Notes: generated by a model from the letters alone, not told the origin. A stretch of DNA of 64,000 nt from Polyangiales bacterium (GCA_038231275.1 JBBRLQ010000004.1:335960-399959), one strand, 5' to 3'. Positions 7,257-60,526 are shown, numbered from the stretch's first letter. A program made the numbers and translations.

Positions 7257-7272
7257 TGGCGCGCCGGTTGCT
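7257..7272 (+). promoter_or_regulatory. sigma54 -24/-12 promoter, with candidate enhancer ACTGGA-N8-TCCAGT at 7177-7196
   Basis: TGGCGCGCCGGTTGCT, GG-N10-GC; inverted repeat about 90-105 bp upstream of the inferred TSS. Confidence 0.65.
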
Positions 7273-7300
7273 GAGGACCCTTCAGTGAAAGAGGGTAACC

Positions 7301-7786: not shown

Positions 7787-7902
7787 AACGCGCACGCTCC
7801 GGCCCTACACCGCTCCATTCGAAAAGAGACGAGAAGTGGACGAAGTGCCCCGCTTTGCAGCGTTTTCGGGCGCCGCGGCGACGAAGTGCTAGAGCTTGGA
7901 TC

Positions 7903-8715
7903 TTGCGAACGCACGGATCCAGCTTGAGGCGTAGCCTCTCCCTTCTCGTGGTCGCCGCGTGCGGGGGTACGACGCACATCGTCATCGACGGGGACGGCGG
8001 CTCCACCCCTCCGCCTCCTCCCCCGAACGACGCAGGGGCGGACTCGACGACGCCTCCACCGGACAGCGGCCCCACGCCCGACGGCGGCCCCGGTGACGAC
8101 GCCGGACCCAAGGACTCTGGACCCGCGCCAACCGGCTGGGACGGCGGATTTCCGGGACCGATCACGTGCCCGGGCCCCGGAACGTGGATCAACAACGGCG
8201 GCGCCGGCTGCGGCGCGGAGCGCTGGACGATCAAGACCGGCACCGACACGGCCGCCGCGGGCATCAGCCTCCTCCCGAAGCTGACGACGATCCAGGATTT
8301 GCAGCTGATTCCCGCGCCCACCACCTTCCCGCAGACGACGCGCATCGCGCCAACGGAGAAGACGGTCTTCGCGCTCAAGGACGTGCGCCTCGCGTTCGGG
8401 CGCCTCGAAGGCGACAGCGACTATCACCTGATGCTGAGCGATCTGGTCCGGACGATCATCACGGAAATTCCCTTCCCCGGGGGCTGCACGGACGGCAGCT
8501 CGTGGCAGTGCCTCATCTCCCACGCGCGCTCCACCGTCGACGCGCAGAATCTCGGCATCACGAGCGCCGGGAAGAACTTCAACACGGTCGTATCGGTCAT
8601 CGGCGTCGGATTTTTCGATCCGGAGCACGGCCAGTACGGAGCCGCGCCGAACACCATCGAGCTTCACCCGCTGCTCGGCATCTGCTTCGGGGCCGGCTGC
8701 GATCCCAGCAAGTGA
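7903..8715 (+). CDS. Lipoprotein with conserved secreted domain (possibly OB-fold-like); start uncertain
   Basis: LLVVAAC lipobox; PDAG-type linker; ERWTIKTGTD, DSDYHL, GVGFFD, IELHP motifs. Confidence 0.65.
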   Translation: MRTHGSSLRRSLSLLVVAACGGTTHIVIDGDGGSTPPPPPPNDAGADSTTPPPDSGPTPDGGPGDDAGPKDSGPAPTGWDGGFPGPITCPGPGTWINNGGAGCGAERWTIKTGTDTAAAGISLLPKLTTIQDLQLIPAPTTFPQTTRIAPTEKTVFALKDVRLAFGRLEGDSDYHLMLSDLVRTIITEIPFPGGCTDGSSWQCLISHARSTVDAQNLGITSAGKNFNTVVSVIGVGFFDPEHGQYGAAPNTIELHPLLGICFGAGCDPSK

Positions 8716-10241: not shown

Positions 10242-12500
10242 GTGGCCGTGGAGCCGTCGGAGCTCACGTTCGAAGTGCACGGCATGACGTGCGCGAGCTG
10301 CGTCGGGCGCGTGGAGCGTGCGCTCCGCAAGGTCGATGGCGTCGCAGGCGCGAGCGTGAACCTGGCGACCAACCGCGCCACGGTGACGAGCGCGGGCGAG
10401 CGCGGTCCGTCTGCGTTGCGGCCGCTCCTCTACACGGCCGTTCACGACGCCGGCTACGAGGCCGCCGACGTCCCAAAGACCGCCGACGAGGCCGCCCACG
10501 CGGAGGAGACGGAGCTCAGGCTCGCGCGCCGTGACGCGCTCGTCGCCGGCGCGTTCGCGCTTCCGCTCGTCGTGCTCTCGATGGTCCCGATGGCGGTGCC
10601 GGCGCTTCACGCGCTGCTGCACCCGCTCCCCGAGATTCTGATGGGATGGGGCGGCCTCGCGCTCGCGGCGCCGGTGCAGCTCTGGGCGGCGCGCCATTTC
10701 TACGTGCGCGCGTGGTCGGAGGTCAGGCAGGGGAGCCTAGGAATGAGCACGCTCGTCGCGCTCGGTAGCTCGGCGGCGTTCGGATACTCGCTCGTCGCGC
10801 TCGTGGCGCCCGGCGCGTTTCCGCCGGGGACCGCGCACACGTACTTCGAAGCGTCGGCGTCGATCGTCGCGTTGATCCTCCTCGGAAAGTACTTCGAGGC
10901 GCGCGCGAAAGGGCGGTCCGCCGCGGCGCTGACGAAGCTGCTCCGCCTCGGCGCGAAGACAGCGCGCGTACGGCGCGACGGGGTCGAGAGCGATCTGCCC
11001 ATCGACGACGTCGTCGTGGGCGACGAGATCGCGGTGGTACCGGGAGAGCGTGTGCCCACCGATGGGGTGATCCTCGAAGGCGAGAGCTTCGTCGACGAGT
11101 CAATGATCACCGGAGAGCCCACGCCGGTGGAAAAGGGTCCGGGCGCGCAGGTCACAGGTGGCACGGTGAACGGCAACGGCGCGTTCAGCTTCCGCGCGAC
11201 GCGCGTGGGCAAAGAGACGCTCCTCGCGCGCATCGTGCACGCCGTCGAGAGCGCGCAGGCCGGCAAGCCGCGCGTGCAGGAGCTCGCCGATCGGATCGCC
11301 GCGGTGTTCGTGCCGGCGGTCCTCGCCGCGGCGGCGCTCACCTTCGCGGCGTGGTGGTTCTTCGGGCCGGCGCCTGCGCTGTCGCGCGCGTTCGTCGCCG
11401 CGGTCTCGGTCCTCGTCATCGCGTGCCCTTGCGCCATGGGCCTCGCGACGCCGACCGCGGTCCTCGTGGCCACCGGCCGCGCCGCCGAGCTAGGCGTGCT
11501 GTTTCGGAAAGGCGCGGCGCTGGAGGGGCTCGCCGCCGCGACCACGGTCCTTCTGGACAAGACGGGCACGTTGACCGAAGGGCGGCCCGCGCTCACCGAC
11601 GTCCACGCGGTCGGCGACGTCGCCGAAGCCGACGCGCTCCGACTGATCGCAGCGGCCGAGGCGCGCAGCGAGCACCCGATCGGCCGCGCCATCGTGTCCG
11701 GCGCGAAGGCGCGTTCACTCACGCTTCCGAAAGCGGAGGGCGTGAAGGCCGAGGCGGGGCTCGGCTTCACCGCCATGGTCGAAGGACGACGCGTGCAGGT
11801 CGGCGCCGCGCGCTTCATGGAGCGCCTCGGGATCGCGCTCGACGACCACGCCGCGCTCCTCGCGCGCTTGGCAAACGAGGCGAAGACCCCCGTGCTCGCT
11901 GCCATCGACGGCAAGCTCGCGGCGATCCTCGCGGTGTCCGATCCCGTGCGGGCCGAGAGCGCCGAGATGGTCCGCGCGCTCGAGGCTTCGGGGCTCGAGG
12001 TCGGCATGGTGACCGGAGACGATCGACGCACGGCCGACGCCGTCGCGGGCGCGCTCGGGATTCGGACCGTGCACGCCGAGATGCTGCCGGTCGCCAAAGC
12101 AGAGGAGATCGCGCGACTTCAGGCGGCCGGTCGCCGCGTCGTGTTCGTCGGCGACGGCGTCAACGACGCGCCCGCCCTCGCGCGCGCCGATGTGGGCGTC
12201 GCGATGGGAGGCGGCACCGACGTCGCCATCGAGTCGGGCGACGTCGTCCTCGTGCGCGGAAACCTGCGCGCGCTTCTCGACGCCCACGCCCTGAGCCGCC
12301 GCGCGGTGGCGACGATCCGTCAGAATTTCTTCTGGGCCTATGCCTACAACGTGGCCCTCGTGCCGCTCGCGGCAGGGGCCTTCTATCCGCTCGTTCAGAT
12401 GATGCTGTCGCCGGTGCTCGCGGCGGCGGCGATGAGCTCGAGCAGCCTGTTCGTCGTCGGCAACAGCTTGCGTCTGCGCCGCTTCACACGAAGCGCCTGA
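10242..12500 (+). CDS. copA: Cu(I)-translocating P1B-type ATPase
   Basis: GMTCASC, TGE, CPC, DKTGT, SEHP, GDGVND, YN and MxxSS motifs. Confidence 0.96.
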
Positions 12501-19801: not shown

Positions 19802-21073
19802 TCAGGTCTTTCCGCCGACGCTGCCGCTCGCCGAGGCCTTCACCTCGACCGACACGCTGACATTGGCCTTCAAGCTGCCCGCCGCCTTCATGACGCCGGC
19901 GAACGGCTCGGCGACACACGCCGTGAGCTGCGCGCCGCTGACCGCGTTGGCGCTCGCCGCGCTCTTCACGCTGGCCTCGAGGCCCTGGACGATGCCCGAC
20001 ACGTTGCCGCTCATCTTGACGCTGGCTTCGCCGAGGCCGATCGCGATCTTGAGCACGAGCGGGAGGTTCTTCTCGAGCGCCACCTTGTACGACTCGGCGA
20101 CCTTGGCGTCCGCCGCGCCGTCGACGCGAATGGCGACCTTGGCGGGCGAGCACTCGGCGTGCGACTGAACCTGCGCGCTGCACTTGGCCTTGCACTCGCC
20201 GCTCATCTCCGGCGGCTTGACCTCGCCGCGGCACTTCGGCTCCTTCATCTCGACCGAGCACTTGCCGGTGCAGGTCCCCTCGCACTTGGCGGTCGCTTGC
20301 ATCTTGCACGAGCCGCCGCATTTTCCGCCGCACGTGGCCTCGACGTTGCCGTCGCACTTGCCGTCGCAGGTGCCGGCGCACGCGCCTTTGCCGTCTTTGC
20401 CGTCGCACTTGCCGTTGCACGTGCCGTTGCACTTGCCTTTGATGGCGACGTCGCACGAGCCGTGACACGTGCCCTCGCACTTGGCGGCGGCGCTCATGTC
20501 GCAGGTGCCTTCGCAGTTGCCGCTGCAGGAGCCGGCCAGGTGGCCGGGCTCGCACTCGACCTTCGCAGTGCCGGGCTTCACGTTCACGTCGCACTTGCCG
20601 GCGCAGTCGGCCATGACGCTCATCTGCGCTTCGCAGTGCGGCGGCACGATGTCGATCGCGATCTGCGCCTTCGCGCCGAGCTTCCCCTTCGCGTCGCCAA
20701 TCGCCTTCACGGCGAGCTTGCACGCCTCGTCGCCGCTCTTCGGCTCGCCGGCGGCGCCGAGATCCTTGGCGATGCCGCCGCACGCGGTCTTCAGATCCGC
20801 GTCGACCTTCGCGGCGAACTGCTCGAGCTCGAGCGACGCGACGAGGCCCGCCTTGATCTTGCCGCCAACTTCGGGGGCGAGCTTGAAGTTCGAGACGAAG
20901 TCGAACGACGCGACCTCCTCGATGTTCGCCATGTTCGGGCACTTGCCGGTGAGGCCCTCCGCACCCGGCACGTTCGCGAGGCCGGGGACACCGCCCGCGC
21001 CGCCGCAGTTCGTCAGCACCGGCCCCAGGGCCCCCAGACCGATCAACGAGATGAATCGCCACGCGTTTGTCAT
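19802..21073 (-). CDS. Cys-rich lipoprotein with tandem CxGxCxGxC repeats
   Basis: Lipobox VLTNC; six CxGxCxGxC units flanked by helical regions; AAGGAG RBS. Confidence 0.8.
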   Translation of the reverse strand: MTNAWRFISLIGLGALGPVLTNCGGAGGVPGLANVPGAEGLTGKCPNMANIEEVASFDFVSNFKLAPEVGGKIKAGLVASLELEQFAAKVDADLKTACGGIAKDLGAAGEPKSGDEACKLAVKAIGDAKGKLGAKAQIAIDIVPPHCEAQMSVMADCAGKCDVNVKPGTAKVECEPGHLAGSCSGNCEGTCDMSAAAKCEGTCHGSCDVAIKGKCNGTCNGKCDGKDGKGACAGTCDGKCDGNVEATCGGKCGGSCKMQATAKCEGTCTGKCSVEMKEPKCRGEVKPPEMSGECKAKCSAQVQSHAECSPAKVAIRVDGAADAKVAESYKVALEKNLPLVLKIAIGLGEASVKMSGNVSGIVQGLEASVKSAASANAVSGAQLTACVAEPFAGVMKAAGSLKANVSVSVEVKASASGSVGGKT

Positions 21074-21133
21074 GAGCAGCTCCTTCGCCACGACGGGTAT
21101 CACGACCCGCGTGTCGTGTGCTATCGACACTTG

Positions 21134-21766
21134 GTGAGGATCGCGGTCTGCGACGTCGGGCTCGGCAACCTGCGCAGCGTCGAGCGGGCGCTTTCGCGGG
21201 CGGCGAGCGACGCGGGCGTGTCGGCGACGATCACGCGGACGACCGATCCCGAAGCGCTCCAGGCGGCCGACAAGATCGTGGTGCCGGGACAGGGCGCATT
21301 TCGGGACTGCGCGGTCGCAATGGGCCGCGGGATGGGTGACGCCGTGAAGGAGGCGATCCGCGCAGGCACGCCGTACCTCGGCATCTGCCTGGGTCTCCAG
21401 GTTCTCTTCGAAGCGAGCGCCGAGGCCGACGGGTGCGAAGGACTCGGCGTCCTCAAGGGAAAAGTCGAGCGGCTGACCGGCGGAGTCGACGCCTTCACCG
21501 GCGCCGCGCTGAAGATCCCTCACATGGGATGGAATCGCGTGGACCCGTACGGCGCGTCGCTCTTGCCGCCGGACGCGGCGTCGTTCTACTTCGTCCACAG
21601 CTACGCGGTGGTACCCGCCGATCCGAGCGTCGTCGTCGCGATGACGGACTATGGCGGCCCGTTCGTCAGCGCCGTCGCGAAGGACAACGTCTTCGCCTGC
21701 CAGTTCCACCCCGAGAAGAGCCAGGCGGTAGGCCTCGCGCTCCTCACGCGCTTCGTCCGCGCGTGA
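21134..21766 (+). CDS. hisH: Imidazole glycerol phosphate synthase, glutaminase subunit
   Basis: GNLRSV, PGQGAF, GICLG, PHMGWN, YFVHSY, QFHPEKS. Confidence 0.96.
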   Translation: MRIAVCDVGLGNLRSVERALSRAASDAGVSATITRTTDPEALQAADKIVVPGQGAFRDCAVAMGRGMGDAVKEAIRAGTPYLGICLGLQVLFEASAEADGCEGLGVLKGKVERLTGGVDAFTGAALKIPHMGWNRVDPYGASLLPPDAASFYFVHSYAVVPADPSVVVAMTDYGGPFVSAVAKDNVFACQFHPEKSQAVGLALLTRFVRA

Positions 21767-31331: not shown

Positions 31332-32732
<1,401 letters not shown>

Positions 32733-45292: not shown

Positions 45293-46147
45293 TCACCGCA
45301 GCGCGGCAAGCCGCTCGAGCCCCTCGAGCCGTTGCAACAGGAAGCGCTCGGCCGGACCGAAGGCGCCGAGCTGACCGCGAAGCTGCTCGATGTACCCGCG
45401 CAGACGCGCCAGATCGATCGCCGTGACCTTTCGCATCGCCTGGTACAGCTCGTCGATGACCGACGCCGGACACGGCCGCCCCTGCGCCGCGTACAGCTCG
45501 ATGACGTAGTCGGCCCAGCCGCCCTTTCCGGTCGCCGTCGCCAGCTTCGCGCTGAACTTCGCCGCCTGATCGACGAGCGACGGCGGCACGCTGCGCCCCT
45601 GGCGCGTCGTCTCGATGACGTCGGCGAGTGCGGAGGCAAGGAGCCGCTCCGCCTCTGCTGCGCGCCCCATCGCGAGCGCCTTCTCCGCGACTCCGCCGAG
45701 GAGCTTGAACGCGTCGGCGCGCCGCACCATGCTCGGCTCGGGCTCGCTGTCGACTGGCTGGCTTGACGGCACTTCCACTTGGCGAACCGCCGCCGCCATC
45801 TTCGGCAAGGTCAGCTTCGCGGCGGCTTGCGGCGGTCCCACCGGCGCGCCGCTCGGACCTCCATCGTCGCGCGCGTGCAGCAGGGTCAGCTCTTGTCCGC
45901 CGATGAGGATCTTGTCGCCGGCGCGCAGCTCGACGCGTCCCTCGATGCGCTGGCCGTTGACGAGCACGCCGTTGCGACTGCCGAGGTCTTCTACGAGGAC
46001 GCCGTCACGGCTCACGTAGAGGATCGCGTGCCTGCGCGAGACGAGCGGATCGTCGAGCGAGAGCTGGCAGCTCGCGTTGCGGCCGACGGCGAACTGGCCC
46101 TCGCTGAGCTCGAGGTCGTGCTGGAGATAGCGCAGGCGGAAGCGCAT
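45293..46147 (-). CDS. FHA domain protein with helical C-terminal domain
   Basis: VGRN...VSRRHA...DLGSRNG. Confidence 0.88.
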   Translation of the reverse strand: MRFRLRYLQHDLELSEGQFAVGRNASCQLSLDDPLVSRRHAILYVSRDGVLVEDLGSRNGVLVNGQRIEGRVELRAGDKILIGGQELTLLHARDDGGPSGAPVGPPQAAAKLTLPKMAAAVRQVEVPSSQPVDSEPEPSMVRRADAFKLLGGVAEKALAMGRAAEAERLLASALADVIETTRQGRSVPPSLVDQAAKFSAKLATATGKGGWADYVIELYAAQGRPCPASVIDELYQAMRKVTAIDLARLRGYIEQLRGQLGAFGPAERFLLQRLEGLERLAALR

Positions 46148-46317: not shown

Positions 46318-47223
46318 TCAGGAAGGCCGCGGATCAGGCGCCGAGCGTGGGTTGCTTCGCAGCTCGGCGAGGCTCGCCCGGAGCTGCTCGAGTCGCGAGA
46401 TGACCTCGGTCTCGTCGTCCGCGAGCGGCCGGGTGAGCGACCGGCAATGCAGGACGAGCGCCTCGATCGACTCGGCGACCTCGGGGTGGCGCGGACCGAG
46501 CTGGGCGAGCCGCTCGATCACCTCCGCGGGGGGAATGAACTGCACGCGACGGTACACTTGCGCCGTCCATGAGCCCCAGGTCGGATCGTCGGACTCCGTC
46601 GCTACCCGCGTCGCGGCCACCGCAAGCGTGGCGAGCTGTCGAGGGTCCACTTGCTCGTGCGAGACGATGCGCTCTTCCACCTGCGCGGTCGCCCGTCGCA
46701 GGATGCGCTCGGCGTCGGCGACGCGCGAGAGCGACAGCGCCTTCTCGAGGACCTCGATCAAGAGCTGGACGCTCCACGAGCCTTGCGACGCGGCGCCGAA
46801 CTGGCCGCTCAAGGTCTCCTCGTCCATCTGCTCCGTCGCCCCGCAGTTCGGGCACGCGATGACCTCCTGCGGGTACGGAAGCCTGCATTTCGCGCAGTGG
46901 CGCAGGAAGCCGGTCGTCTTCGCCGCGACATTCGCCACCTGCTCGACACGACAGAACACGAGCTCCTGCGTTCCAACGCGGAGCCGGTCGCCGTCCTTGA
47001 GCTTCGCCGCGCCGCGGATGGGCGCGCCGTTGAGCTTCACCCCGTTGCGGCTCCCGAGGTCCTGGAGCGTGGCGTCGTCGCCGTCGATCACGATGCGCGC
47101 GTGCTGCCTCGAAACGAGCGGATCCTCGATGGTCACGTGACAATCCGAGCTCCGCCCGATCAAGGTGGCGCCGCGAGGGAGATCGAACTCTTGCAGCAAG
47201 AAGCGGAGCCGGTACCTCGCCAC
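46318..47223 (-). CDS. FHA domain protein with Zn-ribbon; paralog of the neighbour
   Basis: IGRS...VSRQHA...DLGSRNG; CAKC...CPNC; GGAGG before GTG 47223. Confidence 0.88.
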   Translation of the reverse strand: MARYRLRFLLQEFDLPRGATLIGRSSDCHVTIEDPLVSRQHARIVIDGDDATLQDLGSRNGVKLNGAPIRGAAKLKDGDRLRVGTQELVFCRVEQVANVAAKTTGFLRHCAKCRLPYPQEVIACPNCGATEQMDEETLSGQFGAASQGSWSVQLLIEVLEKALSLSRVADAERILRRATAQVEERIVSHEQVDPRQLATLAVAATRVATESDDPTWGSWTAQVYRRVQFIPPAEVIERLAQLGPRHPEVAESIEALVLHCRSLTRPLADDETEVISRLEQLRASLAELRSNPRSAPDPRPS

Positions 47224-47437
47224 GCTCACCTCCGGAGGCGCAGGGCGAACGCCGTGCGCGACTCGAACAGCATTGAAGTATACGGCGAAAGCTTTTCGAT
47301 TTGTCGCGCCATTCCCCAGAGAAGCCCCTAGCGCCGAAAAAAGGCGCGGGCATGTGGGCACAGGTGCGGGCGGGCGCGACGGGTGCAGCCCGTTCGCCGT
47401 TCCGCCGGGCGCTCGTGATAAGGTGGCCGCTCGCTTC

Positions 47438-47707
47438 ATGGCCGACTCCCCCGCCGACATGATTTTTCGAGCGTGCCGCGATCAACTCGCGCCCCTCGTA
47501 CGCGCGGACGGCGGAGTTCTCTACGTGGTCGCCGCGTCCACCGACGACGTGCATCTGCACCTCGCGGGCACCTGCGCAGGTTGCCCGGGCGCGACGATGA
47601 CGCGCGATCGCCTCATTTCGCCGGCGGTGAAGGCGATCCTCCCGAAGGCGCAGCTCCGCGTTACGACGGGCTGGCGTGTGCCCGAAGGTGCGCGGAAGGT
47701 CGAGTAA
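47438..47707 (+). CDS. NifU/Nfu-like Fe-S scaffold domain protein
   Basis: PLVRADGG...LAGTCAGCP. Confidence 0.85.
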   Translation: MADSPADMIFRACRDQLAPLVRADGGVLYVVAASTDDVHLHLAGTCAGCPGATMTRDRLISPAVKAILPKAQLRVTTGWRVPEGARKVE

Positions 47708-49462: not shown

Positions 49463-50260
49463 GTGACCGTAGAGATTCACAACGCCAAAGACATCGAGTC
49501 GATGCGCGCCTCGTGCGAGATGGCGGCAGAGACGTTGCTCCTCGTCGGAGAGCGCCTCAAGCCCGGGATGACGACCGAGGACATCAACACGATCGTCCAC
49601 GAAGATACGCTCCGACGCGGCGCGTACCCGTCGCCCCTCAACTACAAGGGCTTCCCCAAGAGCGTGTGCACGTCGGTGAACGACGTGGTCTGCCACGGCA
49701 TCCCCGGCCCGCGAGTCCTCAAGGACGGCGACATCGTCAACGTCGACGTGACGACGTTCTACAAGGGTTTCCACGGCGACACGTCGGCGACCTTCTACGT
49801 CGGCACGCCCAGCCCCGAGGCGCGCAAAGTCGTCGAGGCGGCCCGGCGCGCGCTCGATCTCGGCATCGCCGAGGTGAAGGACGGCGCACGCCTCGGCGAC
49901 ATCGGCGCGGCGATCCAAGAGTACGTCGAGGCGCTGGGCTGCAGCGTGGTGCGCGACTTCGTGGGCCACGGCATCGGCCGCAAATTCCACGAGCCCCCGC
50001 AGGTGAAGCACTTCGGCAAGCGCGGCACCGGCGAACGCATCAAGACCGGGATGATCTTCACGATCGAGCCGATGGTGAACACCGGCCGGTGGGAGGTCGA
50101 GGTCGACCCGAAGGACAAGTGGACCGTGACGACCGCCGACGGCTCACTGTCGGCGCAGTTCGAGCACACGGTCGTCGTCACCAAGGGCGGCTGCGAGGTC
50201 CTCACGAAGCGCGCGAAGCCGCTCCGCATGAGCGAGAACGTCGCCCTCCTGTTCGGCTGA
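49463..50260 (+). CDS. map: Type I methionyl aminopeptidase
   Basis: SVNDVVCHGIP, DVT, GD, GHGIG, FHE, TIEPM, AQFEHT. Confidence 0.96.
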   Translation: MTVEIHNAKDIESMRASCEMAAETLLLVGERLKPGMTTEDINTIVHEDTLRRGAYPSPLNYKGFPKSVCTSVNDVVCHGIPGPRVLKDGDIVNVDVTTFYKGFHGDTSATFYVGTPSPEARKVVEAARRALDLGIAEVKDGARLGDIGAAIQEYVEALGCSVVRDFVGHGIGRKFHEPPQVKHFGKRGTGERIKTGMIFTIEPMVNTGRWEVEVDPKDKWTVTTADGSLSAQFEHTVVVTKGGCEVLTKRAKPLRMSENVALLFG

Positions 50261-50314: not shown

Positions 50315-51847
50315 GTGCCGCTCACCGACGACGACGCGAAACGACTTCGGCCTTACGTCTCGAACCTCGATCGCGACGTGTTCGCGCTCGCCGGCCTGCC
50401 GGAGGAGGTCATCGCGGTTCTCTTCGCGTACTACTCGCGGAGCAAGGACGATCTACGGACGAACCTCGCGCGCCTCCTCGCCGATCAGGAGATCGAGCTG
50501 ACCGAGGGCGGCGGCGCGGCGCCCGTCTTCAAGCTCGCGAGCGAGAAGGCGAAGGCGTTCCACGAAAAATGGGTCGTCGGCTATGGGCACCAGTCGGTCG
50601 CCGAGCACGCGGTCGTGCACCTCGCGATCGAGAACGTGAGCATCGTCACCTCGAAGGCCATCGAGGATCTGCGCCTCGCGTCGTACACCGAGAAGAGCAC
50701 GCGCTACGTGATGTGGGAGGAGGACAGCTTCCACCCCCTCGCCGACATCGAAGGGCGCCTCGGGCAGATGTACAGGAACACGTGCCGCGGACTCTTCCGC
50801 ACGTACCTCGACCTGGTGCCCCGCGTCGAAGTGGAGATGAAGAAGCGCCACGCGCGCGGCGAGAAGCAGACCGAGGGCGGCTACAACGCGCAGATGAAGG
50901 CGAAGACGTTCGATCTCTTGCGCGGCCTCTTGCCCGCGGGGACGAAGACCAACCTCGGCTTCACCGCGAACGCGCGCGCGATCGAGATGCTCCTCTCGAA
51001 GATGCTCACGAGCCCGCTCAAGGAAGCGCGCGACGTCGCCACCGCGATGCACGTCGAGAGCGGCCACGTCGCGCCCACGCTCGTGAAGTACGTCGCCCCC
51101 AACCCGTACCGCGCCGCGCTTCGCGACGCCGTGCCGCGGATCGCCGAGGCGGCCGGTTTGTCCGGCACCGACGAGGGGGAGAGCACGGAGGAGTACGGGC
51201 AAGCCGTGCGCTTGTTGCGCTACGACTTCGACGCCCTCCAGCGCGTCGTGCACGCCCTCTGTTACGAGGGATCGGACGCGCGATGGAACGCGTCGGGATT
51301 GTCCTCGAGCATCGGGCGGACGTCGAGCGCGAAGCTCGAGCAGCTCCTCAAGGCGGTGATGGACCCGCGGGGAAAGTTCGATCCGGCGCCGCGCGCGTTC
51401 GAGGCCGCCACCCTCGCGTTCGAGGTCACGATGGACTTCGGCGCGTACCGCGATCTTCAGCGACACCGCATGCTCTCGCCGTTCACGCAGCGCCTCGGGT
51501 GCTGGCTCGGCGCGGAAGTGCCCGCCGAGCTCGACGAGATGCCCGGCATCGGCGAGGAGTTCCGCGCCGCGCTCGAGCGCGCGGAGGCGACGTGGCACGA
51601 GATGGCGCCGTCGCTCCCGCACGAGGCGCAGTACGTCGTCCCCCTCGCCTACCGGCTCCGTACTGTGTGGCAGATGAACCTGCGCGAGCTGTTCCACATG
51701 GTGGAGCTCCGCAGCGCGCGCGAAGGTCACCCGAGCTACCGCAAGGTCGCGCAGCAGATGTACCGCCAGTCGGTGAAGGCGCTCCCGTGGCTGCGCGATC
51801 TCGTGCGCGTCGACTTGAACGACTACGCGCTTACGCGCAAAGGCTGA
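50315..51847 (+). CDS. thyX: Tandem-domain FAD-dependent thymidylate synthase (ThyX-like)
   Basis: GHQSVAEH, EKSTRY, RDLQRHRMLS, NLREL; about twice the length of canonical ThyX. Confidence 0.8.
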   Translation: MPLTDDDAKRLRPYVSNLDRDVFALAGLPEEVIAVLFAYYSRSKDDLRTNLARLLADQEIELTEGGGAAPVFKLASEKAKAFHEKWVVGYGHQSVAEHAVVHLAIENVSIVTSKAIEDLRLASYTEKSTRYVMWEEDSFHPLADIEGRLGQMYRNTCRGLFRTYLDLVPRVEVEMKKRHARGEKQTEGGYNAQMKAKTFDLLRGLLPAGTKTNLGFTANARAIEMLLSKMLTSPLKEARDVATAMHVESGHVAPTLVKYVAPNPYRAALRDAVPRIAEAAGLSGTDEGESTEEYGQAVRLLRYDFDALQRVVHALCYEGSDARWNASGLSSSIGRTSSAKLEQLLKAVMDPRGKFDPAPRAFEAATLAFEVTMDFGAYRDLQRHRMLSPFTQRLGCWLGAEVPAELDEMPGIGEEFRAALERAEATWHEMAPSLPHEAQYVVPLAYRLRTVWQMNLRELFHMVELRSAREGHPSYRKVAQQMYRQSVKALPWLRDLVRVDLNDYALTRKG

Positions 51848-51852
51848 CGCCC

Positions 51853-52146
51853 TCACTGGCAGGTGCGCGAGAGCGTTTGCCGATCGCACGTGTTGCCGCA
51901 CGCGCTGTAGCAGGAGCAGTAGTTGTCCACGCAGGTCTGGCAGGCCGCCTTGTCCGCCGCGGCGGCCGCCTTCTGGGTGCATGCGTCGAAGGTGTCGGTG
52001 CACGACTTCTCTTCTGTCGAGGAGCAGGTCTGCGCGCTGCTGCTTCCGCACGCCAGCTGGCTGGGGCCGAGCAGGGCCAGGAGGAGGCCGCCGAGGGCCA
52101 GGACGATCTTGTTTCGCTTCACCATTTCGTTCGTGTTCGTGCTCAT
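51853..52146 (-). CDS. Small Cys-rich lipoprotein (start may be 52125)
   Basis: QLAC lipobox; 10 Cys in the mature domain. Confidence 0.75.
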   Translation of the reverse strand: MSTNTNEMVKRNKIVLALGGLLLALLGPSQLACGSSSAQTCSSTEEKSCTDTFDACTQKAAAAADKAACQTCVDNYCSCYSACGNTCDRQTLSRTCQ

Positions 52147-52159
52147 GCATTTCCCTTAC

Positions 52160-52174
52160 GCAAGCCCCACGCCA
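52160..52174 (-). promoter_or_regulatory. sigma54 -24/-12 promoter of the small Cys-rich lipoprotein
   Basis: TGGCGTGGGGCTTGC on the minus strand, GG-N10-GC. Confidence 0.6.
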
Positions 52175-52235
52175 CGCACGATTCACTGCAAAATAAGCCG
52201 TTTTGTGACGGACTGCCCTCCGCCGTAGAGCAACG

Positions 52236-52262
52236 TGGGCAAGCCTTGCCCAGCCTTGCTCA
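52236..52262. promoter_or_regulatory. Candidate enhancer-binding-protein site
   Basis: Palindrome TGGGCAAG-C-CTTGCCCA followed by CCTTGCTCA, the same core as the 57.2-kb array. Confidence 0.5.
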
Positions 52263-52285
52263 CGGGCGCGGTATACTTGTCGGCA

Positions 52286-53758
52286 ATGGCGTCCTCGCCA
52301 GCCTCGCACATCGACCGCTACGAGATCCTCGGCCGCCTCGCCGAGGGCGGCATGGCGGAGGTCCTCCTCGCGCGGATGCACGGACCACACGGGTTCGAGC
52401 GACCCGTCGTGCTCAAGCGAATCCTCCCGCACCTGGCGCCGGACAAGCGGATCGTCGACCTCTTCCTCGACGAGGCGCGCATCATCGCGAACCTCCATCA
52501 CCCGAACCTGATTCACGTGCAGGAGCTCGGGAGCAACGCGGACGGCCTCTACATCGTGATGGAGTACTTGGAGGGAGAGTCGGTGGCAGGCCTGTGCCGT
52601 CGGCTCGCGCTCCGCAACGAGGATCTCCCTCCCCACCTCGCCGCGCACGTCCTCGCCGAGGCGTGCGCCGGTCTCCACGCCGCGCACGACGCGAAGACGC
52701 CCGAGGGGAAGCCGCTCGATCTCGTCCATCGCGATATCTCGCCGCAGAACCTCTTCGTGACCTACTCCGGCGCCGTGCACGTGATCGACTTCGGCATCGC
52801 GACGACGACGACCCGCGAGAGCCGCACCGAGGTCGGCACGGTGCGCGGCAAGATCGAGTACCTCGCTCCCGAGCAGCTCAAGTCGGTGAAGCTGGATCGT
52901 CGCACCGACGTGTTCGCCCTCGGCATCGTGCTCTTCGAGGTCGTGAGCGGTCGGCGGGCGTACCGGCGCGACAGCACGGCGCAGACGCTCCACGCGATCC
53001 TCTCGGAGCCGGCTCCGCAACCGTCGCGCGCGCGCCCGGGAACGCCGCCGGCGCTCGACGCGATCTGCGCGCGCGCGATGGCCAAGGATCCGGCCGATCG
53101 ATTCCAAACCGCGGCGGAGATGCGGCGCGAGCTGCTCGCCTTCATCCGAAAGCAGACGGTCGACGACGCCGGCGAGCACCTCGGCAAGGTGATGCAGCGC
53201 CTGTTCGCCGATCGTATCGCGGAGAAGGCGGAGCTCCTACGGCGCGTCCGCGGGGGCGATCGGGTGGTCGTGCTCCCGCAGGCCGAAGTCGACGTCGACG
53301 TGGAGATGCCGACGGTGCCCGAGCCACAGACGAACCTCGCGCAGACGCTCCCCTCGCGCCTCGACGATCTTTCGCCGAAGACGGGGTCGCTGCCACGCAC
53401 CTCCAGACTCTTGATCGCCGCCGCAGCGCTCCTCGCCGTCGCCTCGATCGGAGTCGTCAGCGCGACCCGATTGCGCACGCCCGCGGTTCAAGAGCGAACG
53501 ACGACGCCACCTCCCGCGGTCGACGACGCTGTCACGACGCCAGACCTCCCTGCAGCCCGAGTACCGTCTCCGCCGCCGACCGGCGCGTCGATCGACCCGG
53601 CGGCGCCCGCGCCGTCATCCCAAGCGTCTGGAGGCGATCCCGCGATCGTGGACGCCGGCGGACGCACGGCGAACCCGCCTCGTCCGCCGGTGCGCCCGCC
53701 CGCTCATCCGACGCCGAGGCCGGCGGGGTCGCGCGGATTGTCGCCGTCATTGTGGTAG
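52286..53758 (+). CDS. Membrane Ser/Thr protein kinase with Pro-rich external tail
   Basis: LAEGGMAEV, VVLK, HRDISPQN, DFG, YLAPE; TM segment LLIAAAALLAVASIGVV. Confidence 0.95.
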   Translation: MASSPASHIDRYEILGRLAEGGMAEVLLARMHGPHGFERPVVLKRILPHLAPDKRIVDLFLDEARIIANLHHPNLIHVQELGSNADGLYIVMEYLEGESVAGLCRRLALRNEDLPPHLAAHVLAEACAGLHAAHDAKTPEGKPLDLVHRDISPQNLFVTYSGAVHVIDFGIATTTTRESRTEVGTVRGKIEYLAPEQLKSVKLDRRTDVFALGIVLFEVVSGRRAYRRDSTAQTLHAILSEPAPQPSRARPGTPPALDAICARAMAKDPADRFQTAAEMRRELLAFIRKQTVDDAGEHLGKVMQRLFADRIAEKAELLRRVRGGDRVVVLPQAEVDVDVEMPTVPEPQTNLAQTLPSRLDDLSPKTGSLPRTSRLLIAAAALLAVASIGVVSATRLRTPAVQERTTTPPPAVDDAVTTPDLPAARVPSPPPTGASIDPAAPAPSSQASGGDPAIVDAGGRTANPPRPPVRPPAHPTPRPAGSRGLSPSLW

Positions 53759-53801
53759 GCGCCAGCGCGGCCAGGCGACGCGCGCATGCTACGATGGTCT
53801 C

Positions 53802-54917
53802 GTGAAGGCCCTTCGACGCCCGGCAGCCGTGGCGGCGCTCGTCGGCGCGGCGCTCTGCACGGCCGCCACCTTCGCCGCGTGCTCGGTTGGCGATCTCGAT
53901 GTGCGCGGAAAGGCGTGCGGCGACACGTGCCCGGGCGGCATGCCGTGCATCGACGGGATCTGCGGCGGCGCGTCGGAAGGGGGCACCCTCGACGGATCCG
54001 TGGGCGCAGACGGCCAAGGCGGCGACGCGGGGCCAGCGGACGGCGCCCCCGATGTCGACCCCGGGCCCGTGCCGGACTGCCCTCCGGGTTCCTGCGTGGC
54101 GCCTCCGCCCGCGGGCTGGACCGGGCCCTTCCAGATCTACGACGGAAATCCCGCGAACGTCCCCGCGTGCCCGGCGCGTTCGCCGGTCGTCGCGCTCGCT
54201 GCGAACGCCGATATGAATGCCCCTCCCGCTGCGCAGTGCTCGGCGTGCTCCTGCGGCGGCGCCACCGCCGCGACGTGCGGCAAGGCGTTGATCGGGCCCG
54301 GTTGCACGGCGTGCCCGACTCAAACCGCGCCGGCCCTCTACGGGTGCTACTACCCCGGAACGGTCATCACGTGCGGCGGCAGCGCGGCGACCGACGCGCT
54401 GATCACGCCGGCCGCGGCCGACGGAGGCAGCTGTCCGCCCGACGGAGGCGTCGCGACGCGGCCGCCGGTGACCTGGCAGCGCGCGCAGATCGCGTGCATG
54501 AACGGGAACGTCTCGACGTCTGGATGCGACGGCGGACGTCGTTGCGTGCCGACGCCCGCGTCACCGTTCGAGTCTGCGCTCTGCGTGATGCAGGACGGCG
54601 ACGTCGGCTGCCCCGGCGCTCCGTACTCGAGCAAGCGCGTCGTCCAGAAGGGCACGGCCGACACGCGCGGCTGCTCCGCGTGCACGTGCGGCCCGGCGAC
54701 CGGCATCGCGTGCCCGACGACCGTGACGCCCTACGGCGACACGAACTGCATGAGCGCTACCGGCGCCCCCATCGCGGCGCCCACGTGCCAGAGCCTGAGC
54801 CCCGCCCTCTTCATCAGCGTCGGGGCCCCCATCGGAGGCTCCTGTACGCCGAGCGGCGTCGCGCCCGCCGGGACCGTCACGCCGAGCATGCCGGTCACCG
54901 TGTGCTGCACGCCGTGA
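53802..54917 (+). CDS. Cys-rich lipoprotein
   Basis: FAAC lipobox; more than 25 Cys; duplicated CSAC(S/T)CG module. Confidence 0.8.
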   Translation: MKALRRPAAVAALVGAALCTAATFAACSVGDLDVRGKACGDTCPGGMPCIDGICGGASEGGTLDGSVGADGQGGDAGPADGAPDVDPGPVPDCPPGSCVAPPPAGWTGPFQIYDGNPANVPACPARSPVVALAANADMNAPPAAQCSACSCGGATAATCGKALIGPGCTACPTQTAPALYGCYYPGTVITCGGSAATDALITPAAADGGSCPPDGGVATRPPVTWQRAQIACMNGNVSTSGCDGGRRCVPTPASPFESALCVMQDGDVGCPGAPYSSKRVVQKGTADTRGCSACTCGPATGIACPTTVTPYGDTNCMSATGAPIAAPTCQSLSPALFISVGAPIGGSCTPSGVAPAGTVTPSMPVTVCCTP

Positions 54918-54936
54918 GGTCGGGGCTAGCGAGAAG

Positions 54937-56334
<1,398 letters not shown>

Positions 56335-56363
56335 CCCCCAACTCTAGCATCCGACTCGGTCGG

Positions 56364-57170
56364 TCAGAAGCGCCCCTCGAGCATGACGCTCGACCCGCGG
56401 ACGCCGAGCGCCGCGCGCGCGCCGCCGTCGCTGCCGCGAAGGAGGTCGACGCCGATCCACGCGATGCCGACCGCCATGACCACGCCGCCGGCGACGAAGG
56501 CGACGTTCGCGGCACGGGCCAGTCCGCGCGCGTCGTCCTGGAGCGCCGCCGCACGGACGGCGTCGTGCTCATCGGTCGCCGCACCGTGCTTGCCGCTTGC
56601 GAGGATCCCGAGCACCGCGCCGGTCGCGAGGCCCGCGACGCCGACGCCGCTCACGATCCACGCCCCGGTCGAGACATGCGTTGCCCTCGGCGCCGGCGCG
56701 GGTGCCGCCGCAGGAGCTTGCGCGCTCGACTCCCGCTCGTGCGCCGAGGCCTCCGCTTTCCGCCTCGCCTCCTCCGCCGCGGCCTTCTCCTTCTCGAGGC
56801 GCTCGAGATCGTCCACGAGCTTCGACAGCGCAGAGATGCGCCCCTCGATCTGCTTGCGCTCGCGGGGATCGGCGGTCACGACGAGGAACGCGCGCCAGGC
56901 CTCCAGCGCCTCCTTGGGGCGGTGCGCCTCTTCGAGGGCGCGCGCGACGTTGCCGAGGTAGACCGGGTTGGGGTCGCACGCGTATGCGGTCTTCAGCAGG
57001 ACGATGCTGTCGTCGTAGCGTTTCTCTTCGAAGGCGCGGCGCGCGTCCGCGTAGGTCTGCTTCGCGCGATCCGGCGAGCACGCGGCGCGGGCCGGCGCGC
57101 ACCACGCCGCCGCCGCGGCGAGCGCCAGGCAGGTCGCCATGACCTGCCACTTCGCGCTGCATCGACGCAT
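56364..57170 (-). CDS. Exported TPR protein with C-terminal hydrophobic/beta segment
   Basis: Signal peptide (ARA); TPR (YDDSIVLLKTAY...YLGNVARALE); two hydrophobic helices; terminal LEGRF. Confidence 0.8.
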   Translation of the reverse strand: MRRCSAKWQVMATCLALAAAAAWCAPARAACSPDRAKQTYADARRAFEEKRYDDSIVLLKTAYACDPNPVYLGNVARALEEAHRPKEALEAWRAFLVVTADPRERKQIEGRISALSKLVDDLERLEKEKAAAEEARRKAEASAHERESSAQAPAAAPAPAPRATHVSTGAWIVSGVGVAGLATGAVLGILASGKHGAATDEHDAVRAAALQDDARGLARAANVAFVAGGVVMAVGIAWIGVDLLRGSDGGARAALGVRGSSVMLEGRF

Positions 57171-57200
57171 GGGATCAGCATAGCGCGGGCACCCGCCGGC

Positions 57201-57302
57201 GGCTGAGCAAGGGGCTGAGCAAGGGGCTGAGCAAGGGGCTGAGCAAGGGGCTGAGCAAGGGGCTTGTCGCCTTGCTCAACGCCCGGGCGCGCCTTGCTCA
57301 GC
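57201..57302. repeat. Five perfect 12-bp direct repeats plus two inverted copies
   Basis: (GGCTGAGCAAGG)x5 at 57201-57260; CCTTGCTCA at 57270 and CCTTGCTCAGC at 57292. Confidence 0.92.
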
Positions 57303-57329
57303 GAGCGGAATTTCACGGGCGATCCGCGC

Positions 57330-57345
57330 TGGCGCGCGCCTTGCT
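57330..57345 (+). promoter_or_regulatory. sigma54 -24/-12 promoter
   Basis: TGGCGCGCGCCTTGCT, GG-N10-GC, 60 bp before ATG 57405. Confidence 0.7.
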
Positions 57346-57404
57346 CCTGTCTCGCTCGTCTCGCGACCACCACCGCTTTGCAAAAAAGAAAGAAGAGGCT
57401 CTCC

Positions 57405-57863
57405 ATGCGCTCCATCGCCCTCGTTGCTCTCGTTCTCGCGTCGGCGCTCGCGGCTTGCAAAGAGGCGCCCGTCTCGCGCGAGGCGCCCGCCGCGCTGGCC
57501 GCCACGTCCAACGTGAGCACTACGTCGGCGTCGGCCCCCGCCGCTGCGCACGCGGGGGCGACAGTGGCGGCGACCGCGCCCCTCGTCGCGCCCGTCGCGC
57601 CCGCGCGTCCTGTCCCGCATTCGCGCGGCGGCGGCCGATGCGCAGAGGGCGCGCCGTGCAATCTCGGGTGCGCCGCCGGCCAGTGCGCGCAAGCGTGCGC
57701 CGCGTCCGGGACGTGCAACTTCACGTGCACCGGCGGAGGCTGCAGCCAGGCGTGCGCGCCCGGCGCGATCTGCAACCTCGCCTGCGAGGGCGGAGGATGC
57801 ACGCAGGCGTGCGCCGGCGGTGCGCCGTGCTCGAAGACGTGCACCGGCGGAGGCTGCACCTGA
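57405..57863 (+). CDS. Lipoprotein with four 19-aa Cys repeats (disulfide-ladder solenoid candidate)
   Basis: LAAC lipobox; CAEGAPCNLGCAAGQCAQA / CAASGTCNFTCTGGGCSQA / CAPGAICNLACEGGGCTQA / CAGGAPCSKTCTGGGCT. Confidence 0.8.
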   Translation: MRSIALVALVLASALAACKEAPVSREAPAALAATSNVSTTSASAPAAAHAGATVAATAPLVAPVAPARPVPHSRGGGRCAEGAPCNLGCAAGQCAQACAASGTCNFTCTGGGCSQACAPGAICNLACEGGGCTQACAGGAPCSKTCTGGGCT

Positions 57864-57912
57864 CACGCCGGTCACGCGTGGGTACCAAACGAAGGACGTG
57901 AGGGAGGCCACG

Positions 57913-58668
57913 ATGCAATCGAGCGTCTTCAGGATGAGCGTGATCATGGGACTGCTGAGCGCCGGCTGCAGCGCGCAGTCGGCGGCGCCGAGCGATGGCG
58001 GCCCCCCCGAGACGCAGGGCGTCGAAGGAGGTGCGTGCGCGCCCGCGAGGTGCGCAGAGGATTCGGGCGCCACGCCGGACGCGGCACGCCCCGAGACCGG
58101 CGCGGTCGACGTCGACGCTGGAGCCGCCGACGCCGGATCTTCGCAAGAAGATCTCAGCCTGTGCGGCGCCGACGCGCTCGTCTTCACGCAGCGCGCGCAG
58201 TTGACTCGCTACGGCGCGAGGTACACCGACGCCGATGCCACGCGCGAGAATTTCCCGGTCTCGCAATACCGGCCGGACTTCGGCGTGCCTGGCTGGGGGG
58301 CCGCGTTCAAGGACAACACGATCGCGATCCGCGTGCGCGTTCCGGCCTCGTATCCCGTCGTTCATCCCGATCATCTGGGATTCATCAGGGTCGCGGAGGC
58401 GCCGGGCCAACCCGTCGCGTTCCATCAGCTGTGCGTCAGCGCCCGGGCGTGCGACTTCTCCCGCTGCGTCCCCGACGGAGACACAGGGCCCGGCGTCACG
58501 TTCACGGTAGGGAATCAGGCCGCCGGCGGCTCGACCCTCGATTTTGCTCCCGACCAAATCTTCTGGATCAACGTACGCAACGTCAGCGCCGCGGGCGGAC
58601 CCTCGTGTCCGCCAGAAAACCAGTCGTGTGGCATCCTCCTCGACTTCGCGTCGCCCAATCGGTACTGA
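57913..58668 (+). CDS. Lipoprotein of unknown function, beta-rich C-terminal domain
   Basis: GGGAGG RBS; SAGC lipobox; paired Cys. Confidence 0.7.
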   Translation: MQSSVFRMSVIMGLLSAGCSAQSAAPSDGGPPETQGVEGGACAPARCAEDSGATPDAARPETGAVDVDAGAADAGSSQEDLSLCGADALVFTQRAQLTRYGARYTDADATRENFPVSQYRPDFGVPGWGAAFKDNTIAIRVRVPASYPVVHPDHLGFIRVAEAPGQPVAFHQLCVSARACDFSRCVPDGDTGPGVTFTVGNQAAGGSTLDFAPDQIFWINVRNVSAAGGPSCPPENQSCGILLDFASPNRY

Positions 58669-58674
58669 CCTCGC

Positions 58675-60354
58675 TCACCGCACAGCAAGCATCTCGACCG
58701 CCGCCTTCTTTGCGGCGTCGCCGACCTTCACGCCGCCGATCATTCGCGCGAGCTCGAGGACGCGCTCTTTTTCGCCGAGGCGGTGGACCGTCGTCGTCGT
58801 CCGCCCCTTCGACTCGTGCTTGCCGACGACGAAGTGCGCGTCGGCGAGCGCAGCGATCTGCGGGAGGTGCGTGACGCAGAGGACCTGCCGGTGGCCGGCG
58901 ATGTCCTTGATGGAGCGGCCGATGACCTCTGCCACCGCTCCGCCGACGCCGGCGTCGACCTCGTCGAACACGTACATTCCGGCCGGGCCTTGCTCGGCGA
59001 GGACGCGCTTCAAGGCGAGGAGCGCGCGCGACAGCTCTCCGCCGCTGGCGATGCGACGGAGCGGGCGCGGTTCCTCCCCACGGTTCGGCGCGATGAGAAA
59101 TTCGACGCGATCCGTGCCCGACGGACCGAGGCGCGCGCCCGGCGCGATGTCGACGATGACGCGCGCGCGTCCCATCCCGAGGAGCCCTAGCTCTCGCCCG
59201 ATCGCGTCCGCCAAGCGTTCGGCGGCGGCGCGCCTCTTCTTCGATAGCGCGCTCGCGGCCCGGGCCGCCTCCTCGTGCCGGGCGCCATGCTCGCGCTCGA
59301 GCTCCACCGCGCGGTCCTGCGCCTTCGAGAGGGTGCCGAGCTCGTTCGCGAGCTCTTCGCGGTGCGCCGTGAGCTCGTGGGTCGTTGGACCGTGCTTCCG
59401 CAGGAGCTTCTGCAAGCGGAAGAGGCGCTCTTCGACCTCGGCCAGGCGCGCCGGGTTCGACTCCACACCGTCTGCATAGCGACCGAGGGCGCGCGCGGCG
59501 TCGACCAGCTCCGTCCGCGCGGATGCGACCACGCGCGCCAAATCGAGGAGCGACGCGTCGAGCTCGGCGGCGCCGTCCAGCTCGCCGGCGATGCGCGCGA
59601 GCTCGTCGCAAATCGCGCGGGCCCCGTCGCTCCCCTCGGCGCCACCCTCACATAGCCGCGCTTCGGCGCGACGGGTCGCGTCCGTCAACCGGCTCGCGTG
59701 CTTCAGGCGCGCGCGCTCCACGTCGAGCTCCGCCTCTTCTCCCGGCAGCGGATGCACCTCGTCGATCTCTTTGAGCTGGAAGGCTAGAAAATCCTCCCGC
59801 TCCAGTCGCCCTCGCTCCGCGACGCGCGCGGCTTCGAGCTCACGCGCGACCTCACCCAGCGCGTCGACTTGAACGCCGAGCGCGGCGCGCGCGTCGTCGA
59901 GCTTGCCGAACGCGTCGAGGTAGCCGAGGTGCGTCGCCGGATCGGTGAGGCTGACGCTCTCGTGCTGCGACGCGATGTCACACAGCTCGGGCGCGAGCTC
60001 CGCGAGCTGCGATGCCGTACAGAGCCGTCCATTCAAGAATGCGCGGCTCCGCCCTTCCGCGTGAACGACGCGACGAACGACGAGCTCTTGCTCTCCGGGA
60101 AGGCCGGCCGACTCGAGCATCGTCGCGAGGCGCGAACCCGGGGTCACGTCGAAGAGCGCCTCTACCTCTGCCTCTTTGACTCCAGTGCGAACGAGATCGG
60201 GCCGCGCGCGGCCGCCGAGGACGAGGCTCACCGCGTCGACGAGCATCGACTTGCCCGCCCCCGTCTCCCCCGTAAGCACGTTGAATCCCGGGTGCAGCTC
60301 GAGCACGAGCTCTTCGATCAGAACCAGGTTTCTCACCGTGATCTGAACAAGCAT
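58675..60354 (-). CDS. recN: DNA repair protein RecN
   Basis: TGETGAGKS Walker A, coiled coil, ASGGELSR, FDEVDAG, THLPQIA. Confidence 0.97.
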   Translation of the reverse strand: MLVQITVRNLVLIEELVLELHPGFNVLTGETGAGKSMLVDAVSLVLGGRARPDLVRTGVKEAEVEALFDVTPGSRLATMLESAGLPGEQELVVRRVVHAEGRSRAFLNGRLCTASQLAELAPELCDIASQHESVSLTDPATHLGYLDAFGKLDDARAALGVQVDALGEVARELEAARVAERGRLEREDFLAFQLKEIDEVHPLPGEEAELDVERARLKHASRLTDATRRAEARLCEGGAEGSDGARAICDELARIAGELDGAAELDASLLDLARVVASARTELVDAARALGRYADGVESNPARLAEVEERLFRLQKLLRKHGPTTHELTAHREELANELGTLSKAQDRAVELEREHGARHEEAARAASALSKKRRAAAERLADAIGRELGLLGMGRARVIVDIAPGARLGPSGTDRVEFLIAPNRGEEPRPLRRIASGGELSRALLALKRVLAEQGPAGMYVFDEVDAGVGGAVAEVIGRSIKDIAGHRQVLCVTHLPQIAALADAHFVVGKHESKGRTTTTVHRLGEKERVLELARMIGGVKVGDAAKKAAVEMLAVR

Positions 60355-60383: not shown

Positions 60384-60526
60384 GTGCAACACCCTTGACG
60401 GAGTTGTTGCGACTTCATTACCCTCGGCCGCGGTCGAGGCCTCTCTGGCTTCCCTCCTCGTTTCGCTTCGCCCTCGCTCGCAGTCCGCCCGTCCGCCGCC
60501 CGTCTGCCGCCCGTCTGCCCCCGCGC

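Follow-up and report, generated by a model that had tools for sequence, protein, structure and literature searches.

The cluster described here raises the question of how a Ser/Thr kinase might be coupled to sigma54-dependent transcription. Myxobacteria have very large Ser/Thr kinase families together with numerous sigma54 activators, of which some take their input through FHA domains, and the link between the kinase and sigma54 systems has been a question since the FHA class of activators was described. In a 64,000-nucleotide stretch from a Polyangiales bacterium (GCA_038231275.1 JBBRLQ010000004.1:335960-399959; the window hereafter means this whole 64 kb), a cluster of about 6.8 kb between thyX and recN (51853-58668) holds all the candidate parts of such a link, namely one kinase, one FHA-domain activator, two clean promoters and a 9-bp site whose exact copies occur nowhere else in the 64 kb. 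We propose that these six to seven genes form a signalling module in which the kinase acts on the FHA activator, and the activator on sigma54 promoters; the probability that we give to this whole circuit is roughly 0.55. The chain from kinase to output is testable with a few purified domains and reporter fusions.

The locus is about 70% G+C, and its open reading frames (ORFs) were called by a coding-type G+C content at third codon positions (GC3) of 0.80-0.93. Two core operons face each other. On the plus strand, the gene of a Hanks-type membrane Ser/Thr kinase (ORF 52235-53758, likely start M18 at ATG 52286; Pfam Pkinase) is followed after 44 bp by the gene of a 371-aa Cys-rich lipoprotein (53802-54917). 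On the minus strand, the gene of a 268-aa exported TPR-like protein (56364-57170) lies 29 bp upstream of that of an FHA/sigma54-AAA+/HTH_8 activator (54937-56334), and the two are probably in the same operon. The initial annotation of this DNA had described a membrane kinase and a Cys-rich lipoprotein converging on an FHA-sigma54 activator, an arrangement that ORFs, Pfam and lipobox bear out. The putative outputs lie outside the core: on the left, a 97-aa Cys-rich exported protein (51853-52146, minus strand, GC3 0.91); on the right, both on the plus strand, a 152-aa Cys-rich lipoprotein (57405-57863) and a 251-aa lipoprotein (57913-58668), the gene of the latter starting 49 bp downstream of the former with a GGGAGG ribosome site.

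Each flank of the core carries a sigma54-type promoter that points outward, as had been claimed from GG-N10-GC boxes on either side, and each is intergenic and leads into the gene of a small exported protein. The left one (TGGCGT-N5-TTGC, 52174-52160, minus strand) faces the 97-aa gene and the right one (TGGCGC-N5-TTGC(T), 57330-57344, plus strand) the 152-aa gene; the transcription start sites (TSSs) predicted beforehand, about 52148 and 57356, are consistent with the positions of the -12 C. When compared with the sigma54 consensus TGGCACG-N4-TTGCW, with GG and GC exactly 10 nt apart, in the form in which PMC9765219 quotes it, the right promoter agrees at 11 of 12 positions and the left at 9 of 12. 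The pattern TGGC-N7-TTGC occurs five times in the window against 1.26 expected, a count reached in 1 of 100 shuffles, and two of the five are these promoters, both intergenic and facing lipoprotein-type genes. Downstream of the right promoter, a 50-nt leader with a GAAGAGG ribosome site precedes the 152-aa gene. Both are very likely real sigma54 promoters.

A short motif is shared by the DNA upstream of the two promoters, which had also been proposed initially and holds up well on counting. The 9-mer TGAGCAAGG has eight exact copies in the window, and all eight are upstream of the left and right promoters. Allowing one mismatch raises the number of matches to 30 against 8.86 expected (10 in the two promoter-upstream regions), and GAGCAAGG occurs 15 times against 1.86 expected, a number reached in none of 100 shuffles, with 9 of the 15 in the same two regions. 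On the right, an enhancer-like array (57201-57264, plus strand; -152 to -96 from the predicted TSS) is a perfect 12-bp tandem repeat of 5.3 units with TGAGCAAGG in each unit, and its score of 128 at 100% matches is the highest among the non-coding repeats of the window. Two inverted copies (CCTTGCTCA) follow at 57270-57278 and 57292-57300 (plus strand), that is, at -86 and -64. On the left, the enhancer-like element (52221-52268) is a nested inverted repeat, with inner arms forming a perfect 8-nt palindrome (52236-52243 / 52245-52252), outer arms GAGCAA / TTGCTC, and motif copies at -114 and -104 (direct) and at -96 and -87 (inverted). Counted from the predicted TSSs, motif copies on the right extend from -152 to -56 and those on the left from -114 to -79; the switch from direct to inverted copies lies near -91 and -96. 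That the local activator is what uses these sites seems to us rather probable, judging from their placement.

Promoter-like and repeat-like sequences occur elsewhere too. Within the right intergenic region, a 20-nt stretch (57280-57299) is an 85% near-duplicate of the right promoter (57327-57346) with a GG-N9-GC spacing; this duplicate is absent from the orthologous locus L001 described below. A third sigma54-like site (TGGCGC-N5-TTGCT, 7257-7271) follows a GntR gene. We considered it as a further target and rejected it: an ATG follows 30 nt downstream but in a different frame from ORF 7285-8715, and there is no TGAGCAAGG copy nearby. The later part of that ORF is lipoprotein-like (…LLVVAAC…). 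Tandem repeats of 12 and 24 bp are also present at 20312-20483, inside ORF 19802-21709 (without Pfam match), and one of the five TGGC-N7-TTGC matches is in this repeat stretch, on the antisense strand.

A scan for related loci returned 14, of which one is orthologous, one more has an activator bearing an FHA domain, and the other 12 match AAA+/HTH only, their similarity to the activator beginning at about residue 150. The orthologous locus (L001), from a metagenome-assembled genome of Myxococcales, encodes an activator 86% identical over its full length. Gene order is the same from metAP to fic, and protein identities range from 70 to 94% (kinase 79%; 97-aa protein 86% over 65 aa; 152-aa protein 76%, with all repeat Cys kept). 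Since thyX and recN bound the cluster in both genomes, the earlier description of the locus as self-contained is a fair one. Differences at the three codon positions are 44/25/126 in the activator and 25/21/53 in the 152-aa gene, and the third position dominates in all five genes scored (the 371-aa lipoprotein gene was left out), thus indicating real genes under purifying selection.

Identity in the aligned intergenic DNA of the two loci reaches only 70-71%, with 178 of 255 and 124 of 175 columns matching. In L001 the left promoter has its counterpart in TGGCGC-N5-TTGC at 11161-11175, again with 13 nt between it and the ATG, and the right one recurs at 6028-6014 with one spacer change. The left motif copies are found at -114, -96 and -87 as in the window, whose -104 copy is unmatched. 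On the right, copies at -118, -107, -89 and -65 in L001 correspond to -116, -104, -86 and -64 in the window, the inverted ones (-89 and -65) each with one mismatch. Synteny and motif conservation in relatives had been suggested as a check on the initial annotation; gene order, promoters and promoter-proximal motif copies do recur at matching distances in this one orthologous locus.

The activator has all the sequence features of an active sigma54 activator joined to a phosphothreonine-binding FHA domain. Pfam identifies FHA (E=2.5e-16, residues 63-127), Sigma54_activat (E=2e-66), AAA_lid_14 and HTH_8 (E=1.5e-16, residues 421-461). The N-terminal FHA domain has the residues that contact phosphothreonine (G-R65, S80-x-x-H in SRAH80, N102-G in NGT102), and in the translated AAA+ domain we find a Walker A motif (GETGVGKD at 183), the GAFTGA loop for sigma54 contact at 230 and a Walker B motif (LFIDE). 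The C-terminal helix-turn-helix is of the Fis type (HTH_8), and the best PDB relatives of the AAA+/HTH part are NifA and ZraR, with E about 1e-76. The kinase matches Pkinase with E=7e-34 and has VVLK58-61, HRDISPQN165, DFG185 and APE211. Its activation loop is Thr-rich; a single transmembrane segment (hydrophobic stretch at ORF residues 389-413) is followed by an outer tail of about 85 aa, Pro-rich and without a recognisable sensor domain.

The kinase also matches many PADLOC models of the PD-T4-6 type (best E=1.5e-73) and the activator matches RtcR/PspF-type defence-associated models, from which one might read a stand-alone PD-T4-6-type anti-phage kinase and a defence island. We find this barely credible. 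The PADLOC matches cover generic kinase and AAA+ domains, PknB-type models match the kinase equally well and far below every curated cut-off, and the other five proteins have no PADLOC match; in addition, the cluster is flanked by thyX and recN in two genomes, without mobile-element genes.

A signalling module of kinase and activator is consistent with a second, more distant locus (L002), which loosely repeats the theme: its FHA activator, 49% identical to the one in the window, lies beside a Ser/Thr kinase and a TPR lipoprotein (L002 3014-13969), and 4.3 kb from it a TGGCAT-N5-TTGC site occurs 17 nt before a lipoprotein start codon. The L002 neighbourhood also holds a large MtrC/MtrF-like multihaem cytochrome and a LysR regulator.

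How the core operons themselves are started is suggested by two -10-like hexamers, both seen by eye. TATACT (52272-52277, plus strand) lies 8 nt before the likely kinase ATG 52286, and the TPR-like gene has TATGCT (57177-57182, minus strand) 6 nt ahead of its ATG. The first hexamer, 4 bp from the left motif block, suggests that the kinase transcript is leaderless or near-leaderless and starts just past the left element; on the right, the first motif copy (57204) occupies the would-be -35 position of the TPR-like gene. Leaderless transcripts are therefore possible for both core operons, with motif blocks abutting their starts. The hexamers are kept in L001, TATACT at 9-nt spacing and TATGCT identical with 6-nt spacing. 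A consensus scan of the locus found no sigma70 promoter and just one weak terminator-like site, and Rfam no RNA family, its sole match being a sub-threshold CRISPR-repeat inside a coding repeat. Counting the left sigma54 promoter with the two hexamers, three start codons in the cluster are within 2-9 nt of a predicted transcription start, and the spacings at all three sites are kept in L001. This organism may make many leaderless mRNAs; for a sigma54 transcript to be leaderless would be unusual.

Put together, these elements suggest the following circuit. Each core operon would probably be transcribed from a leaderless sigma70-type promoter. The membrane kinase would autophosphorylate on its Thr-rich activation loop, the FHA domain of the activator would dock on phosphothreonine, and docking or a later phosphorylation would control assembly of the activator. 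The latter would assemble on the TGAGCAAGG sites, centred about 90-95 bp upstream of the two outward sigma54 promoters, and would open these promoters by ATP hydrolysis and the GAFTGA loop, turning on small disulfide-rich exported proteins: that of 97 aa on the left and, on the right, that of 152 aa and here also that of 251 aa. As the outer part of the kinase is no more than a Pro-rich tail, signal sensing would probably go through the co-encoded exported proteins; and because the motif sites abut the start points of the core operons, their occupancy would probably feed back on kinase and activator levels. The links from activator to motif and from kinase to FHA domain we infer from adjacency and domain logic. 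The observation behind the initial annotation is thus confirmed and its circuit interpretation partly supported, the promoter, motif and domain steps at the level of sequence.

Several observations weigh against this circuit or parts of it. CCTTGCTC also overlaps the right -12 element, and one inverted motif copy is within the near-duplicate of the right promoter, so that some of the motif signal might come from the promoter. The left predicted TSS is only 2 nt before ATG 52146, which requires leaderless translation or another start codon. The glycine loop of the kinase is degenerate (A-E-G-G-M-A in the translation), and no rpoN is present among the 47 window proteins scanned. The 251-aa gene has no tblastn match in L001, where recN directly follows the 152-aa gene (the stretch matching its position is L001 5408-5499); on this comparison the putative output operon has gained or lost this gene in a lineage-specific way. 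Conservation is in general weak evidence here, and synteny says little, because the comparison has a single orthologous genome, and a close one (activator 86% identical).

The right array belongs among these points. Its period is 12 bp in the window and 11 bp in L001, where its distal copies are degenerate, so the full array may not be needed and only the proximal part is clearly constrained. The 12-bp array could then be a neutral product of slippage, with function confined to the promoter-proximal dyad formed by the last direct and the inverted copies. The 100% identity of the five copies, which indicates recent expansion, fits this account, as do the L001 distal copies with their one to two mismatches and irregular spacing, only the proximal ones being exact. 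Nevertheless, L001 keeps four recognisable direct copies (degenerate, at -147, -129, -118 and -107) over the same -147 to -99 span, and several sites per promoter are reported for the activator Nla28, as far as the account in PMC9765219 goes; we regard neutrality of the array as somewhat unlikely. A contrary and more speculative idea is that the array is the evolvable part of the circuit. Slippage would change the number of 12-bp copies and thereby set the output gain and, because the divergent leaderless operon has the first copy at its -35 position, also the level of activator; the left output would be made leaderless from a sigma54 promoter, and the targets would be disulfide-rich envelope proteins of three unrelated families. 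If this were true, the sensitivity of the circuit would be tuned by repeat number, a combination that we hold to be quite doubtful.

Assignment of partners is a further difficulty. The window also contains a second Ser/Thr kinase gene (Pkinase, 31332-32732), two more FHA proteins (45293-46147 and 46318-47460) and, at 33-413, the C-terminus of another sigma54 activator (AAA lid and HTH_8), and adjacency alone therefore does not assign partners. With promoters and motif real, the FHA domain might be served by other Ser/Thr kinases or by a non-kinase phosphoprotein, and the adjacent kinase might act on other substrates. Besides the extra kinase and FHA genes within the same 64 kb, the very large kinase families reported for myxobacteria (in the part of PMC4880591 concerned with them) would provide candidates, and the FHA regulator EmbR of M. 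tuberculosis is described as a substrate of several kinases in the relevant passages of PMC6213207. On the other hand, kinase and activator are kept together in L001, the FHA activator of L002 again adjoins a kinase, and the left motif block, 4 bp from the putative -10 of the kinase, ties kinase expression to the same element. We consider such an outside input unlikely, and that the local kinase is an input of the activator slightly better than an even bet, on the strength of gene neighbourhood.

The same inventory bears on what binds the motif. The TGAGCAAGG sites might belong to another activator, or to a repressor of the divergent core operons, with the local activator acting elsewhere in the genome. 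The sites do overlap the putative starts of the kinase and TPR/activator operons, as an operator would, and part of a second sigma54 activator is present in the window. Yet all exact window copies flank the activator's own locus; in both genomes, copies stand as far from two sigma54 promoters as enhancers typically do; and sigma54 promoters need an activator, the nearest being encoded between them. A different binder is in our opinion decidedly improbable.

The putative outputs point to three families of disulfide-rich exported proteins without known function. Pfam gives no match for the 97-, 371-, 268-, 152- and 251-aa proteins and NCBIfam adds nothing specific; sequence searches of Pfam, NCBIfam and PDB with the four Cys-rich proteins gave no match. 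Atlas protein searches started from homologues returned Myxococcota clusters only, and in a profile comparison the three Cys-rich families had nothing but their signal peptides in common. Without signal peptides, the Cys counts of the exported proteins of the cluster are all even (10, 16, 30, 8 and 2), a better fit to exported proteins with disulfide bonds than to metal binders with free thiols.

The 97-aa protein has 11 Cys, 10 of them after the conserved Cys33. It belongs to a rare family, with 15 clusters in 1.84 billion representatives, and across 16 sequences five Cys are invariant and five nearly so. Under the PROSITE-like rule used as lipobox test it fails, with Q at position -3; across the family, the hydrophobic stretch is followed by a Cys that never varies and mostly comes after A or G, and -3 is often Q/E, which leaves its lipoprotein status uncertain. 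The 371-, 152- and 251-aa proteins pass the same rule. The 371-aa lipoprotein, with a canonical lipobox and 32 Cys, contains two Cys modules that resemble each other weakly and both have a C-S-A-C-x-C-G core (internal repeat E=0.002); its 61 homologues are without Pfam domains, those few that carry a name being from Polyangiaceae or Sorangium, and 17 Cys are invariant across 40 sequences. In the 152-aa lipoprotein, which has 17 Cys, the last 75 or so residues are 19-aa repeats with four Cys each (C-x3-C-x4-C-x3-C; a 57-bp coding repeat), and the homologues found are the L001 orthologue and one distant other. The 251-aa lipoprotein has 9 Cys, only 3.6%. The initial view of the outputs as Cys-rich lipoproteins thus stands as to the lipobox for the 152- and 251-aa proteins, is uncertain in that respect for the 97-aa protein and falls short for the 251-aa protein in Cys content.

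The supposed TPR protein is likewise a mixed case. Nine of its 37 homologues have Pfam TPR domains; its own best match, TPR_2, is sub-threshold (E=0.24, 12 bits against a cut-off of 27). It has a coiled-coil stretch and C-terminal hydrophobic segments at 169-193 and 216-244. As it fails the lipobox rule (A-R-A before the Cys), it is not a lipoprotein.

The surroundings of the cluster are housekeeping genes for the most part: metAP (49463-50260, plus; GC3 and Pfam) and thyX (50315-51847, plus; Pfam) on the left, recN (58675-60354, minus; Pfam) on the right, followed by a Fic gene (60395-61417, plus; Pfam). The thyX product is 510 aa long, about twice the usual ThyX length, with two Thy1 stretches in Pfam, and is 93% conserved in L001. 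Near the end of the window (63350-64000), G+C breaks abruptly, dropping from about 0.7 to 0.4-0.5 and then to 0.08-0.17. There ORF 62257-63903 passes in frame from Pro/Ala-rich, bacterial-looking sequence through a CAG/CAA (poly-Gln) repeat to a Gln/Asn/Ser-rich part, followed by GTAAGT and A/T runs; the segment has the look of a chimera in which eukaryote-like DNA was joined on at a shared repeat.

Comparison with known systems places the proposed module among several partial precedents. In the open-access papers and preprints searched, we found neither an FHA-type activator described together with kinase, DNA site and direct targets nor a report of the TGAGCAAGG motif. Activators of the NtrC/ZraR/NifA type share AAA+/HTH_8 and act from dyad sites about 80-150 bp upstream of a -24/-12 promoter. 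They differ in having receiver or GAF input where an FHA domain is present here, and one of the enhancers here is a perfect direct-repeat array. In the PknH-EmbR system of Mycobacterium tuberculosis there is no sequence relationship to the cluster beyond the FHA and kinase domains, and the FHA domain of EmbR is C-terminal. The likeness is one of logic, in that a membrane Hanks kinase controls a DNA-binding regulator through an FHA domain with envelope-related outputs, whereas EmbR is OmpR-like and acts with an ordinary sigma factor, not as an AAA+ sigma54 activator, as far as PMC6213207 treats these proteins. Closer in DNA architecture is Nla28, a sigma54 activator of Myxococcus xanthus, for which the sections of PMC9765219 and PMC7910581 on its binding sites describe tandem 8-bp half-sites in direct repeats, often 3-5 per promoter. 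As in the cluster, short repeated half-sites there lie upstream of TGGC-N7-TTGC promoters, and Nla28 also regulates its own gene. In contrast, it is a histidine kinase that drives Nla28, which by the same account is a response regulator, has no FHA domain and recognises an unrelated half-site (CT[C/G]CG[C/G]AG), and its promoters are mostly intragenic as reported, whereas both promoters here are intergenic.

Nearest in domain composition are the FHA-bearing activators of M. xanthus, which have the same N-terminal FHA, sigma54 AAA+ and C-terminal HTH arrangement and the same proposed logic, with Ser/Thr kinases feeding sigma54 transcription through phosphothreonine recognition. FHA-domain sigma54 enhancer-binding proteins were reportedly described in that species in 2005, and no cognate kinase, DNA site or direct target set is said to have been defined for them. 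Unlike those proteins, the activator described here, from a Polyangia-like lineage, has a candidate kinase, site and targets within one 6.8-kb cluster. FHA-bearing sigma54 activators are thus a known myxobacterial class, of which this activator is a new and well-defined member, with putative outputs that have no known function.

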